Positions 1-3,328 of a DNA stretch of 64,000 nucleotides are shown piece after piece. Under the pieces are notes generated by a model. That model was given only the letters and a program-made list of their open reading frames with translations, did no database searches and was not told the origin of the DNA. Every line of letters begins with the position of its first letter. Position 1 is the stretch's first letter. Location of the stretch: the sequence record DRR723986_8380. One strand, 5' to 3'. Both the position numbers and the translations under genes were made by a program.

Positions 1-10
1 GGCAATTACA

Positions 11-145
11 TACCATCGTGTTTGTATATGAAAAGTAGCGCCATTATACGGCACTATCTTTTCAGCTAGCGTAAACATATTAAAAAAGCGCAAGCTTTAA
101 TGACTTGCGCTTAACAAGCTATTTTTTATATACATTGTTAGCTAC
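11..145 (-). mobile_element. attC-like cassette recombination site (imperfect palindrome, ~135 bp)
   Basis: Minus strand starts with GTAGCTAAC (145-137) 33 bp after the cassette stop. A 17-bp stem forms between 23-39 (TGTATATGAAAAGTAGC) and 118-134 (GCTATTTTTTATATACA), with 15 Watson-Crick and 2 G.T pairs on the + strand. There is an internal 9-bp perfect hairpin 86-94/104-112. The distal core reads GATGGTA (17-11) rather than GTT. Confidence 0.7.
82..112 (-). terminator. putative intrinsic terminator inside the attC-like site
   Basis: AAGCGCAAG/CTTGCGCTT 9-bp stem; the A-run at 82-87 gives a U-tail on the minus strand, downstream of the cassette ORF. Confidence 0.5.
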
Positions 146-149
146 TGGC

Positions 150-168
150 TATTATTATTATTATTATT
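150..168. repeat. (TAT)6 simple repeat
   Basis: tattattattattattatt between the cassette stop and the attC-like site. Confidence 0.8.
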
Positions 169-178
169 TACGCTTTTG

Positions 179-598
179 TTAATCACAACCAGAGCTTAAT
201 CGAACTAAACTATATCCTGGTGTTTCAAAATATGCTTCCCCACCATTACATTCGAATACAATTGGAGTAACTAATTCATTTCCAAAATTCAAATCAACAG
301 TTAGCACATCGTTTTCAAATGTATATTCATTTGTTCCTGGGATGGCGTTAGAATCTCCTGCTGCAAATGATTCATATTGTGATGCGCAATCATCACCAAT
401 ACAATAATAAGTATATCTAATTCCATTTTCAAAAATGTACATTGTATTTGAGATACCTTGATCACTTATTCCAGGTGTGTCGGACGGGAATAACCATTTA
501 CCTTCAATATCATATACTATAGGTGTTTCGGCCGAATCATCTTCTTCGCAGCTCACAAAACTTAATATGAGTGCACTGAGCAATAAAATTTTTTTCAT
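179..598 (-). CDS. predicted lipoprotein of unknown function; gene-cassette ORF
   Basis: Signal peptide with lipobox FVSC followed by acidic EEDDS; beta-rich body; lies between two complementary core sites. Confidence 0.8.
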   Translation of the reverse strand: MKKILLLSALILSFVSCEEDDSAETPIVYDIEGKWLFPSDTPGISDQGISNTMYIFENGIRYTYYCIGDDCASQYESFAAGDSNAIPGTNEYTFENDVLTVDLNFGNELVTPIVFECNGGEAYFETPGYSLVRLSSGCD

Positions 599-704
599 AA
601 GTAAAATATTAGATTATTTTTTATAAAACATTTAACAACATAAAATTCCTACCTGTTTGTTTAGTTATTTAGTAAAAAACCTCATTTGTTGCTTTTTTTT
701 GCTT

Positions 705-738
705 GTAGCTAACACGTAAATAAGTCTGTATTTACGCT
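705..738 (-). mobile_element. attI-like site or cassette start junction
   Basis: GTAGCTAACA (705-714) is the exact reverse complement of TGTTAGCTAC (136-145). It is adjacent to an 8-6-8 inverted repeat CGTAAATA-AGTCTG-TATTTACG (715-736). Confidence 0.6.
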
Positions 739-814
739 ATTTAAATCTAAAATAATAATAATTTGTAATCCTGCACTAACATTAATGTATTTAATTTTTT
801 GTATACATACATAA

Positions 815-854
815 TGTATAACAAAACACTTATTTTTGTATAGTGTGTTATACA
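815..854 (+). promoter_or_regulatory. putative integrase promoter (-7 TATTTTTG at 831-838) flanked by an inverted repeat (operator candidate)
   Basis: TGTATAACA (815-823) and TGTTATACA (846-854) are perfect inverted repeats enclosing a Bacteroidota TAnnTTTG element 27 bp upstream of the ATG. Confidence 0.5.
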
Positions 855-864
855 AAATGAACGT

Positions 865-1932
865 ATGAATTTATCTAAATATATTTTTAAACCAGCCAAA
901 CATAGAGGGAAAGCCATTATCCTTATTCAATTTCCATTCGACCAGAATTTAATTGATGATCTACGTAAACGTTTTCCGTCTGCTAAATGGAGTGCTTCAA
1001 AAAAATCCTGGTATTTACCAGATCTGCCAGTCGTAAGAGAGGCTATTCAGATGTCAAAAAAGAATAGTGTGGTTACTAAGGTAAATTCTATTCATCCTGC
1101 AAATCAACAGGCTTATTTAGACCTTAATAAGCAGTTAATTCTAAAAAAGTATAGTCAAAGTACTAAACGCATTTACTTAGCGGAATTTCAGCATTTATTA
1201 TCACTTCTAGATGATTACTATGTTGGTGACTTAAATCCAAAACGACTTAAGGATTATTTTTTGTATTGCCTTAAAGTTGAAAAAATGAGTGAGCGGAAAA
1301 TGAACGGAAAAATAAATGCCATTAAATTTTACTTTGAGCAGGTATTGCACAGACCCAAAATGTTTTTTGATATCCCAAGACCTAAAAAACCACAGACATT
1401 ACCAAAAATGCTAAGTAAGACAGAGGTGAAAAAACTATTTAAAGTAACCACAAACTTAAAACATAAGATGGCATTGCAATTATGTTATGGTATGGGATTA
1501 CGAGTTTCTGAAGTTGTGAATCTTAAAATTGTAGATATTGATAGCAAAAGGATGGTAGTGCATGTAAGAGGCGCAAAGGGTAAAAAGGACAGATATGTGC
1601 CATTACCAAAATCTATTTTGCCAGAGTTAAGACAGTATTATTTAGAATATCGTCCTAAGGTTTTCTTATTTGAAGGCCAGTATGGTAATGCCTATGCAAA
1701 ATCTAGTTTACAACAAGTCTTTAGGCACGCCATGCGTAAAGCAAATATTAAAAAGGAAATAGGTATACATGGGTTACGCCATTCTTACGCAACACATCTT
1801 CTGGAGTCTGGCGCAGATATGAGATTTATTCAAGAGTTATTGGGCCATAATTCAATTAAAACAACACAGGTGTACACCAAAGTAACTCCACGTAGTAAAT
1901 CTAAAATTACAAGTCCGTTAGATCAATTGTAA
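865..1932 (+). CDS. tyrosine recombinase, integron-integrase-like, with N-terminal extension
   Basis: Catalytic motifs GLRVSE, GAKGKKDR, HGLRHSYATHLLE, LLGH and TTQVYT; SAM-like segment KKYSQSTKRIY; no long insertion between KDRYVPLP and FLFEG. Confidence 0.93.
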   Translation: MNLSKYIFKPAKHRGKAIILIQFPFDQNLIDDLRKRFPSAKWSASKKSWYLPDLPVVREAIQMSKKNSVVTKVNSIHPANQQAYLDLNKQLILKKYSQSTKRIYLAEFQHLLSLLDDYYVGDLNPKRLKDYFLYCLKVEKMSERKMNGKINAIKFYFEQVLHRPKMFFDIPRPKKPQTLPKMLSKTEVKKLFKVTTNLKHKMALQLCYGMGLRVSEVVNLKIVDIDSKRMVVHVRGAKGKKDRYVPLPKSILPELRQYYLEYRPKVFLFEGQYGNAYAKSSLQQVFRHAMRKANIKKEIGIHGLRHSYATHLLESGADMRFIQELLGHNSIKTTQVYTKVTPRSKSKITSPLDQL

Positions 1933-1933
1933 T

Positions 1934-3328
1934 TTATAGCGGAATATACGTTACCATTAAGGCTTGCAGCACAAACAATACCATAAAAGGTATAAATAAA
2001 TACCCAATAACATCTCTGGCTTGTATCTTTATACCTTTACCCATTACTGGGAAAACTAATAGTAAAAAGAACGGCTGTAACAAGTTACTTAGGCTCTCAC
2101 CATAGGCAATAGACATAGAGGCTCTGGCAGTCATTGCTGTAACTTCGGTAGGCGAGAGTTGAGCTCCCAATTCTTGTACCATATTAATAATACTTGGACC
2201 AATAACAGCAAACTCTCCTCCAGCTGATGGAATGGCAAAATTTATGATACCTCCTGTGAGATAGGAGATAAATGGATAAGATTCTGGTGTTGCTATAGAC
2301 ACTAAAACATTGCTAATTTTTTCACCTAATCCTGACGCTATCATTATACCCATAATACCAGCATAAAACGGATATTGAAACAGTATACCAGATATGTTAC
2401 TACTGGCGCGTTTCATAGCAATACTATACCGCATTGGTGTAATATGAAGAAATAAGCCAATTATAATAAATATGAAGATCATAATATTGAAATTAAGATC
2501 AAAGCCCTTGGTGGCGAAGTGGTATATAATGTATGTAAGACCAAGTAATGCTACACTTATTTGTAACCAGCCAGCATTATTTAAACTATCAGAAATGGCT
2601 TTGTAAGGCAACTTGTAGGATAAAGCCTCGTCTTTTATGGTAGAATCTGCATCAGATTTTTCAACAATTAAATCTTGTAACTCTTTTCCTTGAGACGATT
2701 TAGGGATAAGTAACCAAACTAAAAGCGGAGCTGCCACAAGAAATAATAAAATCATTACAATATTTATCATAGAGCCTAAAGTATAGGACGTAGATATGGT
2801 GTCATTTAAAATATTTTCGGCGATAAGAAAATTATCCTTTGTATTTAGTAATAACGGGATTGAACTCGATAATCCACAAACCCAGGCATTGCTCGAAAAA
2901 TAGACACATGCTATTAAGAATGGATAGTTAACTCCTTTAACCCGTAACGCAAGTTCTCGGGCGAGAATGGCAGTAACTACAACCATACCAAAACTAGTCA
3001 TAGTAACTATAACACCAAAGATCATAACTAGCAGATAAACGTGTACTGAGGTTGAGATTTTCTTAGATAATAAATCAATACCTTTCATTACAGGTGGTGC
3101 CTGCGCAATACTATAAGCCGTAATGACGATTAATACGATTTGCATACCAAAGGACAATAGTTTCCAAAAACCATCGTACCAGCCTTTAAGTACGGTAATT
3201 GGTTGGCTGTCTGTAAGTATAACTGCTAATAGGCCTGATATCAGGGTTAGCAGGAGTGCAAAAACATAAGCACTTGGCATATACTTAGTAAAGGTGTCTG
3301 TGAATTTTTGGCCGAGTTGAGTAATCAT
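1934..3328 (-). CDS. short-chain fatty acid transporter (AtoE/TIGR00366 family)
   Basis: Multi-TM protein with motifs LLSFGMQ, GLSSSIPL, QYPFYAGIMG, PSAGGEF and NLLQPF. Confidence 0.85.
   Translation of the reverse strand: MITQLGQKFTDTFTKYMPSAYVFALLLTLISGLLAVILTDSQPITVLKGWYDGFWKLLSFGMQIVLIVITAYSIAQAPPVMKGIDLLSKKISTSVHVYLLVMIFGVIVTMTSFGMVVVTAILARELALRVKGVNYPFLIACVYFSSNAWVCGLSSSIPLLLNTKDNFLIAENILNDTISTSYTLGSMINIVMILLFLVAAPLLVWLLIPKSSQGKELQDLIVEKSDADSTIKDEALSYKLPYKAISDSLNNAGWLQISVALLGLTYIIYHFATKGFDLNFNIMIFIFIIIGLFLHITPMRYSIAMKRASSNISGILFQYPFYAGIMGIMIASGLGEKISNVLVSIATPESYPFISYLTGGIINFAIPSAGGEFAVIGPSIINMVQELGAQLSPTEVTAMTARASMSIAYGESLSNLLQPFFLLLVFPVMGKGIKIQARDVIGYLFIPFMVLFVLQALMVTYIPL

Follow-up and report, generated by a model that had tools for sequence, protein, structure and literature searches.

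The DNA analysed here is a stretch of 64,000 nucleotides (nt) from sequence record DRR723986_8380, called the window throughout. The locus of interest is its first 1932 nt, where the gene for a tyrosine recombinase lies back to back with a unit that has the outward form of an integron cassette and ends in an imperfect palindrome. We examined this locus and its relatives as a candidate gene-capture platform of the Flavobacteriaceae. The coordinates of its features are collected in Table 1.

A first-pass annotation, made from the letters of the sequence, had described an intact tyrosine recombinase gene divergent from a unit with a single open reading frame (ORF). Both parts of this description hold, with the recombinase matching PF00589 at an E-value of 2e-38 and the ORF at 179–598 (−) being the only sizeable one in its unit. 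The 9-mer GTTAGCTAC and its exact complement were likewise found where they had been placed, at 137–145 (+) and, as the reverse complement, at 705–713; these two copies are the only matches in the 64 kb. The pair is weak when taken alone: 0.31 matches were expected, and 3 of 100 shuffled sequences gave two or more. It is therefore only mildly unusual by chance and proves nothing by itself. The imperfect palindrome noticed at 11–145 is present as well, its two 17-nt arms (23–39 and 118–134) showing 88% Watson–Crick pairing. The 3′ end of the recombinase gene does abut a metabolic transporter gene, the two stop codons lying 1 nt apart (1932 against a gene at 1934–3328). The GC content of the cassette is not distinct from that of its surroundings (0.28–0.33 versus 0.31–0.40), and a search of the window against Rfam gave no family match. 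What we regard as the evidence beyond chance is a family of sites found only upstream of orthologous recombinases, against whose models the site in the window scores 98–110 bits.

Table 1. Features at the left end of the window and in the adjoining gene, with positions counted from the first base
Feature	Position	Strand	Remarks
Start of cassette 2, 16 nt	1–16	−	Cut by the window edge; beyond the predicted crossover 16/17
attC-like recombination site, ~130 nt	14–145	+	Covariance-model match at 5–150 (+)
R-left, CATC	14–17	+	Part of the window site
Unpaired GTGTT	18–22	+	Part of the window site
L-left	23–39	+	Part of the window site
Variable loop	40–117	+	Part of the window site
Terminator-like GC hairpin followed by a T run	86–112	−	Within the variable loop; stem of 10 pairs, 5 of them G-C; on the cassette strand a T-rich tail follows
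L-right	118–134	+	Part of the window site
Unpaired TT	135–136	+	Part of the window site
R-right, GTTAGCTAC	137–145	+	Part of the window site
Cassette 1, 696 bp	17–712	−	Bounded by two predicted crossover points
Cassette gene, 139-aa protein	179–598	−	Sole sizeable ORF of the unit
Intergenic region, 266 bp	599–864		Between cassette gene and recombinase gene
attI-like and divergent promoter region	713–864		Conserved block from 713, adjoining the crossover
9-bp inverted repeat, TGTATAACA / TGTTATACA	815–823 / 846–854		Conserved; brackets TATTTTTG
TATTTTTG box, likely −7 box of the recombinase gene	831–838		Before the recombinase start; putative promoter role
Tyrosine recombinase, 355 aa, intact	865–1932	+	Pfam Phage_integrase
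Short-chain fatty acid transporter gene	1934–3328	Convergent with recombinase	Stops 1 nt apart

A family of palindromic sites upstream of the recombinase gene

The window was compared with a related set of 51 loci from Flavobacteriaceae (Winogradskyella, Maribacter, Hyunsoonleella, Croceitalea and others), whose recombinases are mostly 65–96% identical to that of the window. The palindrome of the window aligns with the intergenic palindromes of one of these loci, L050, and a covariance model was seeded with the window site and five sites of L050. This model was run over 199 kb upstream and 509 kb downstream of the recombinase genes and returned 71 matches at E ≤ 0.006, of which 70 lay on the + strand upstream of the recombinase. 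A second model, rebuilt from 66 matches, returned 142 matches at E ≤ 0.01 in the 51 loci and the window. All 140 of its + strand matches are upstream of the recombinase gene (140/140), and the remaining two, on the minus strand, are the reverse strand of strong + strand matches. Short nhmmer profiles of the two arms found only 22 and 48 matches, and the covariance models were preferred. The site of the window, with scores of 110.4 bits (R1) and 98.4 bits (R2), is the sole match in the window at E ≤ 0.01. The expectation that further palindromes of the form YAAC..GTT would be found between co-oriented ORFs is thus borne out in the long arrays of the related loci.

The sites have a common design, read here on the + strand, which is the bottom strand relative to the cassette gene. 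The left end is YAAC in 118 of 137 sites and CATC in 14, and four or five unpaired bases separate it from a 17-bp stem. The first arm of this stem leads into a variable loop, from which the other arm returns. After it come two unpaired bases, the second of which is always T (TT in 112/140), and the right end, GTTR, in 129 of the 140 sites. The length ranges from ~60 to ~220 nt and is mostly ~140 nt, with a second class at ~200–220 nt. A bulged T was seen in just 38 of the 140, and constant extrahelical bases do not seem to belong to the design of this family.

Pairing was evaluated in an alignment of 66 sites. Paired states fill 94.3% of the cells as compared with 79.7% in shuffled alignments, none of 500 of which reached the observed value, and double-sided changes number 171 against 50 in the shuffles. 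Compensatory changes were found in 11 of the 17 pairs of the L stem, while registers slid out of place pair at 28–51%. The + strand is 92.8% paired and the − strand 82.7%. A G·T pair occupies two fixed positions of the stem, in 110 of 135 and in 134 of 137 sites, respectively, and these two near-invariant wobbles point to a single folding strand, the asymmetric loop likewise setting the two strands apart. The window site follows the family, with 17 of 17 pairs in its L stem if G·T is allowed and G·T at both of the conserved wobble positions. Judged from these alignments, the asymmetry singles out the strand that lies opposite to the cassette genes, which is also the case in integrons.

Cassette ends, the attI-like junction and natural variants

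If the crossover takes place inside the R box, the outer bases of adjacent sites should be complementary, since they are both ends of one cassette. In 108 adjacent pairs we compared the 7 nt beyond GTT of each site with the 7 nt that precede AAC in the next site towards the recombinase. The two ends of a cassette are complementary at a mean of 5.79 of 7 positions, with 54 of the 108 pairs perfect and another 29 at 6/7, whereas the same comparison within one site gives 2.42/7 and that between random pairs 2.46/7. The first-pass annotation had noted that the 3′ inverse core of the cassette complements its own 5′ start, and the difference between 5.79 and 2.42–2.46 of 7 agrees with pairing to a cassette's own start rather than to that of its neighbour. 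The last site also complements the attI junction at six or more of the seven positions in 20 of 30 loci, the window included. There, bases 705–712 together with C17 rebuild the 9-bp complement of 137–145, which places cassette 1 at 17–712 and assigns bases 1–16 to cassette 2. Bases 5–17 match the end of an ORF-less mini-cassette that adjoins attI in L045.

ORF-less cassettes deserve a separate mention. One of ~290 bp is 86% identical in four genomes (L043:9561-9850, L050:8581-8880, L013:839-1140 and L005:1880-2180), where it lies within the array or adjoins attI, and its R-box cores are GAT/ATC, not GTT/AAC, with an offset of one base. Bases 1–16 of the window resemble the start of a variant of this ORF-less cassette that is also at attI in L045. 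The search of the mini-cassette against Rfam returned only chance-level matches to miRNA families (E ≥ 0.1).

The other partner of the predicted exchange is the region upstream of the recombinase gene. The crossover is predicted 151 nt upstream of the recombinase start codon, between 712 and 713 (AA/C on the + strand, G/TT on the cassette strand). In 41 aligned upstream regions conservation begins abruptly at AAC: a conserved block stands to its right, and nothing is conserved leftward of YAAC. The motif at the junction was found in 41 of 45 loci, in 34 of which its distance from the start codon is 147–152 nt. The match between the window and locus L001, where the recombinase is 96% identical, is limited to the DNA rightward of 712/713. 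The boundary of conservation and the complementarity of the cassette ends agree with a predicted crossover at G/TT, the position named by the first-pass annotation.

In this region 23 of 41 loci carry, on the cassette strand and 31–33 nt away from the junction, a TAnnTTnG box, which reads TATTTTAG at 747–754 in the window. In the light of known Bacteroidota promoters, we suggest this box as a putative cassette-directed promoter. A scan for sigma-70 promoters, whose consensus is unsuited to this phylum, gave no enrichment (9 versus 10.4 expected). The inverted repeat TGTATAACA / TGTTATACA around the likely −7 box TATTTTTG of the recombinase gene could be an operator or an arm-type site of the recombinase, and it has no match among the published Bacteroidetes SOS motifs. 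As to transcription at the other end of cassette 1, the terminator-like hairpin at 86–112 (−) would block read-through from cassette 1 to cassette 2.

Natural variants of the junction were sought in public sequencing runs, which contain at most 64% of the sampled words of window positions 1–2400; four runs were compared with the window. Contigs from three of them, X3, X1 and X9, which belong to three studies, match from 708/711 to 2400 with 0–8 differences (≥99% identity) and continue leftward into unrelated sequence. One alternative left sequence is common to two runs, and the third run has another. In X1, the contig that carries the window's own cassette ends at 713, and another contig diverges exactly at 17. 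All these breakpoints lie at most five bases from the predicted crossovers, which is what is expected if the alternatives share the AAC core.

These results bear on a simpler account of the palindromes, namely that they are intergenic repeats of the kind of repetitive extragenic palindromic (REP) sequences or MITEs (small transposable elements with inverted repeats), or terminators, that have spread between co-oriented genes without there being any cassettes. The sites are indeed AT-rich palindromes that follow stop codons, and the loop of the window site contains a terminator-like hairpin. Yet such elements do not predict complementarity with the next site rather than within the same site (5.79 versus 2.42 of 7), nor a boundary of conservation and contig breakpoints at AAC, nor the restriction of the sites to one side and one strand of one recombinase. 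We consider this account very improbable and continue with the sites as the ends of cassettes.

Arrays and their cargo in related genomes

All 18 of the listed loci with a long upstream flank have the recombinase gene divergent from a stretch of several kilobases or more, most ORFs of which are co-oriented on the other strand. Some ORFs on the recombinase strand are scattered among them, and L029, one of the 18, has its nearest upstream ORFs on that strand. The arrays are 10 kb or more in length, and as many as 11 sites were detected per 10 kb. When the longest ORF of each interval between sites is taken, it lies on the cassette strand in 127 of 140 intervals and on the other strand in 8, and the remaining 5 have no ORF.

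The cargo is very diverse. The 124 cassette proteins fall into 106 Pfam families, none of which has more than five members. Among them are DUF6090 proteins, type IIG restriction-modification enzymes, Gp49-like and SUKH proteins, cation efflux proteins, proteins with a beta-lactamase fold, and toxin-antitoxin-like and immunity-type proteins. SUKH-type domains, which are among the 25 commonest Pfam families listed, occur in 2 of the 124. Judged by the restriction-modification, toxin-antitoxin-like, immunity-type and beta-lactamase-fold proteins in this cargo, the arrays are a reservoir of accessory and defence genes.

The 139-aa protein of cassette 1 begins with MKKILLLSALILSFVSC, which by eye was judged a lipoprotein-like signal, and belongs to no Pfam family. 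It has 808 homologues at E ≤ 0.001 in metagenomes and metagenome-assembled genomes (MAGs), and in the 120 homologues listed the names given by the sources are all hypothetical; there is none in the 51 related loci. This unnamed family of 808 was seen in marine Flavobacteriaceae and Saprospiraceae, and one member is in a MAG labelled Cognaticolwellia.

Gene content had been expected to vary beside a conserved recombinase, and this is the case. Only 14 of the 124 cassette proteins have a homologue in the array of another locus, as against 123 of 229 ORFs of the downstream flanks that have one in another locus's downstream flank. The downstream flanks form synteny groups, one of which unites the window with L001 and L007. 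A syntenic flank combined with variable cargo indicates that the platform is anchored in the chromosome while the array varies.

Many assemblies end 30–430 bp upstream of the recombinase gene. A contig end 31–424 bp upstream was recorded in 13 of the 51 loci (L001, L007, L009, L015, L017, L019, L022, L027, L033, L042, L044, L045 and L049), and in genome G004 many site matches are at the ends of short contigs. The repeated sites, which lie on many short contigs, are the better explanation of the breaks: they fragment the arrays in short-read assemblies. Genes for rRNA or tRNA were considered as a cause of these upstream breaks and rejected, the only findings being a ribosomal protein S15 leader (L020, Rfam) and one distant tRNA. 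The named host genomes are marine Flavobacteriaceae, and the metagenomes with the window stretch are mostly of marine, seawater or estuary origin.

The recombinase, the proposed platform and known systems

Three domains make up the recombinase: one of ~60 aa at the N-terminus, a SAM-like core-binding domain and the catalytic domain. Besides PF00589, Pfam recognises the SAM-like N-terminal domain. The residues R213, K240, H302, R305, H328 and Y337 are invariant in 28 aligned sequences, and by our own reading they make up the catalytic set. Residues 1–60 (window 865–1044) are predicted to fold as beta-beta-alpha-beta-beta-alpha with a predicted local distance difference test (pLDDT) score of ~90 and carry an invariant W..WYLPD motif. 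This domain has no clear fold relative: no Z score of 5 or more was obtained among 48,161 chains, the best being 4.4 for the N-terminus of T4 UvsW.

The question of whether this enzyme is an IntI was addressed in several ways. Exactly 18 residues separate KDRYVPLP (241–248) from FLFEG (267–271). The best PDB match by sequence is the archaeal XerA 4a8e (4e-41), followed by VchIntIA/IntI4 2a3v (1.2e-35). The alignment to IntI4 falls into two pieces, one of query residues 90–289 with IntI4 residues 12–213 and one of query residues 280–355 with IntI4 residues 245–320, the last 76 residues of the recombinase, SPLDQL tail included, aligning through the final residue of IntI4. Between the pieces IntI4 residues ~214–244 are skipped, and ~55 IntI4 residues stand opposite ~15 of the query. 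Because the alignment passes over residues ~214 to 244, the IntI-specific insertion is absent. The top NCBIfam model is that of integron integrases, TIGR02249, at 195.7 bits against a cut-off of 265 and in two stretches, and all Xer models are below their cut-offs too (XerC 173.5 versus 335, XerD 172.3 versus 330, XerA_Arch 192.8 versus 220). The statement that the recombinase lacks the IntI-specific insertion is upheld by the 18-residue spacing, the gap in the IntI4 alignment and the TIGR02249 score together.

One might suppose that the locus is a canonical integron whose IntI is merely divergent. It would then be natural that TIGR02249 is the best NCBIfam model, that VchIntIA is the top structural match (Foldseek places the AlphaFold model of the recombinase, mean pLDDT 79.8, on 2a3v at an E-value of 1.3e-14), and that the same logic of attI and cassette sites is followed. 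However, the TIGR02249 score is below the cut-off and split in two, the segment ~214–244 is skipped, XerA scores higher than IntI4 by sequence, and the sites seem to be without a constant extrahelical base, the bulged T being confined to 38 of 140. We hold this explanation to be highly unlikely, and the recombinase is treated below as a non-IntI enzyme.

The same site family is also found elsewhere in related genomes. Five genomes each contain at least 18–50 sites in several clusters, the counts being lower bounds with 150 candidates scored per genome. Second arrays of these sites lie beside a paralogue of 45–46% identity (G001:C1:603000-647300, G003:C1:1044500-1080600 and G284:C1:3563800-3570400), which is co-directional with its cassettes, the layout that defines rAID-1. 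The paralogue matches the query only from residue ~85–90 and may lack the N-terminal domain, and that of G001 has one TAG in its reading frame. In G001 and G003 there are in addition clusters of sites without a nearby recombinase homologue (threshold E ≤ 1e-20 against the protein of the window). At E ≤ 1e-50, homologues are encoded by 109 of 301 genomes that sample the phylum evenly. Other matches in the related genomes examined are ~270–330 aa long and 30–38% identical, and they may be housekeeping Xer genes.

Taking these observations together, we conclude that a gene-capture platform of the Flavobacteriaceae, integron-like, sedentary and chromosomal, very probably has its integrase-proximal end at positions 1–1932 of the window, and that this platform is very likely working, or was recently, and is run by a non-IntI recombinase. 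The idea of a sedentary chromosomal cassette-capture system of Bacteroidota, put forward in the first-pass annotation, is thereby sustained through the site family with its covariation and its bias in strand and position, the end rule, the attI boundary, the variable cargo and the conserved flank. We propose the following scheme. The recombinase gene (865–1932) is transcribed away from the attI-like site, and the cassettes are single-gene units, each ending in a site of the family. The + strand of such a site presents a conserved 4-bp R box (YAAC/GTTR), a loop with 4–5 nt on one side and 2 nt on the other, the covarying 17-bp L stem and the variable loop, and it would be this strand, opposite the cassette genes, that folds. 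By exchanging strands at the R box, the recombinase could join a circular cassette to attI or excise a cassette between two sites. An integrated cassette would then have its own R box divided, with one portion at the 5′ end and the complementary portion at the 3′ end. From the sequences we infer that this recombinase performs the catalysis, that the substrate is a folded single strand, that resolution is replicative and that there is expression from the attI region.

Several points weigh against this reading. First, no recombination event, circle or single-stranded intermediate was observed, and the array of this genome was read as far as cassette 1 and 16 nt of cassette 2. Second, 19 of the 108 adjacent pairs, at 4/7 or less, break the end rule. 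These exceptions are concentrated in sites with GAT/ATC cores and in long intervals, and missed sites or a GAT/ATC subclass may explain them. Third, the alignment used for covariation was fitted to the model, which favours the structure, although the slid controls carry the same bias. Folding of single DNA sequences leaves the outer stem of the window site open (z −2.1 for the + strand, −2.9 for the − strand), one of the four sites tested folds no better than shuffled sequences on either strand (z ~0), and the long stem is closed in the minimum-energy fold of one of the four, which is not the window site. The R box of the window site, as it stands in the array, pairs at two of four positions (CATC versus GTTA), which fits the model only if three outer bases belong to the next cassette. 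Fourth, the metagenome contigs, taken from Logan, are short, have a depth of 2–24 and break at repeats, so that the variants count as support, not as proof. Last, two orthologues of 52–53% identity, L052 (G084:C3:533800-547000) and L054 (G082:C56:46400-59600), have neither a recognisable array nor detectable sites. They are full-length, stand beside ordinary-looking gene clusters and show no pairs of complementary ends beyond chance, L053 being too short for this comparison, and the site model found nothing in G084 and G092. For this reason we claim the association only for the clade of at least 65% identity and for the 45–46% paralogue.

A further alternative is that the cassettes are mobile but are moved by another enzyme, the 45–46% paralogue or a host Xer, so that the recombinase of 865–1932 merely adjoins or maintains the array. 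This would accommodate the second arrays beside the paralogue and the clusters away from any homologue in G001 and G003, as well as the two orthologues without an array. It would leave unaccounted for that all 140 of the + strand sites lie upstream of this recombinase clade, that the junction keeps its distance of 147–152 nt from the recombinase start codon in 34 of 41 loci, and that the catalytic residues of this recombinase are invariant. We judge it improbable, though less so than the two alternatives discussed above, and retain the adjoining recombinase as the presumed enzyme of the platform.

What may this mean beyond the present locus? We lean towards the view that cassette capture at folded sites can proceed without the I2 insertion of IntI, and that a separate IntI/Xer-like lineage, with its own N-terminal domain and G·T-wobble sites, runs large arrays in marine Flavobacteriaceae and, via the 45–46% paralogues, is maybe related to rAID-1 of gut Bacteroidales. 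If this is true, integron-like platforms are common in a phylum regarded as almost integron-free, and integron searches overlook a whole class of gene-capture systems. There would be a second solution to the recognition of folded sites, a natural comparison for the evolution of single-strand recombination from Xer-type enzymes, and a mechanistic frame for rAID-type arrays.

We searched the literature for a published description of this flavobacterial system and found none in the main texts, supplements apart; the closest are the rAID-1 arrays. In rAID-1 of Bacteroidales, an XerD-like recombinase is followed by co-directional genes downstream with immunity cargo, and the authors called its intergenic repeats reminiscent of integrons (Ross et al., bioRxiv 10.1101/471110). 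Their criteria ask for a recombinase with more than 44% identity to BF9343_RS08045 and for at least two such co-directional genes. The biogenesis of rAID arrays is described as unresolved (PMC12247911, a 2025 preprint), and the available text of these two papers (bioRxiv 10.1101/471110, PMC12247911) gives no crossover point, folded site or cassette-end rule. As far as that text goes, the platform is like rAID-1 in belonging to Bacteroidota, in having a tyrosine recombinase of the XerD-like type beside short co-oriented genes, in its repetitive intergenic motifs, and in the SUKH domains of two cassette proteins. It differs in the place of the array, which both in the window and in the 18 loci lies upstream of the recombinase gene and divergent from it, and in that the cargo is broad (106 Pfam families) and not dominated by orphan immunity genes. 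The co-directional layout of rAID-1 is seen only beside the 45–46% paralogue in related genomes.

With Xer recombinases the enzyme shares its best PDB sequence match, XerA 4a8e, and the simple layout of core-binding and catalytic domains. It differs from them in scoring below all equivalog cut-offs and in its association with cassette arrays instead of one dif-type site. Clusters of the same site family that lie away from this recombinase in related genomes are like the clusters of attC sites lacking integrases (CALINs). Cury et al. (2016, PMC4889954) mention recombinases without the intI_Cterm domain near fewer than three attC sites and judged them not to be IntI. Unlike those enzymes, as presented in the text available, a single clade here adjoins arrays that span 10 kb or more and have as many as 11 detected sites per 10 kb.

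There is also a likeness to the sedentary chromosomal integrons, such as those of Vibrio. In both, the recombinase gene is divergent from an array of co-oriented, mostly single-gene cassettes, and the sites are imperfect palindromes, conserved more in structure than in sequence, that combine AAC/GTT cores with an unpaired spacer, a further stem and a variable loop. In both, the cassette ends are complementary across the crossover, a fixed attI adjoins the recombinase gene, the accessory cargo is highly diverse, and the chromosomal position is conserved in related species. IntegronFinder 2.0 reported a complete integron in Bacteroidetes only for Salinibacter ruber (PMC9024848). IntI is defined by an extra inserted domain (PMC4889954), and acquisition of the I2 helix is treated as the step that permitted single-stranded recombination (PMC7790495). 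Unlike in integrons, the recombinase described here is without the IntI insertion, falls below the TIGR02249 cut-off and has an extra N-terminal domain. Its sites form a separate sequence family, with two conserved G·T wobbles and an asymmetric internal loop seemingly in place of constant extrahelical bases. Since two defining tests of IntI are failed, we do not file this platform as an integron, though it would appear to work like a sedentary chromosomal one.

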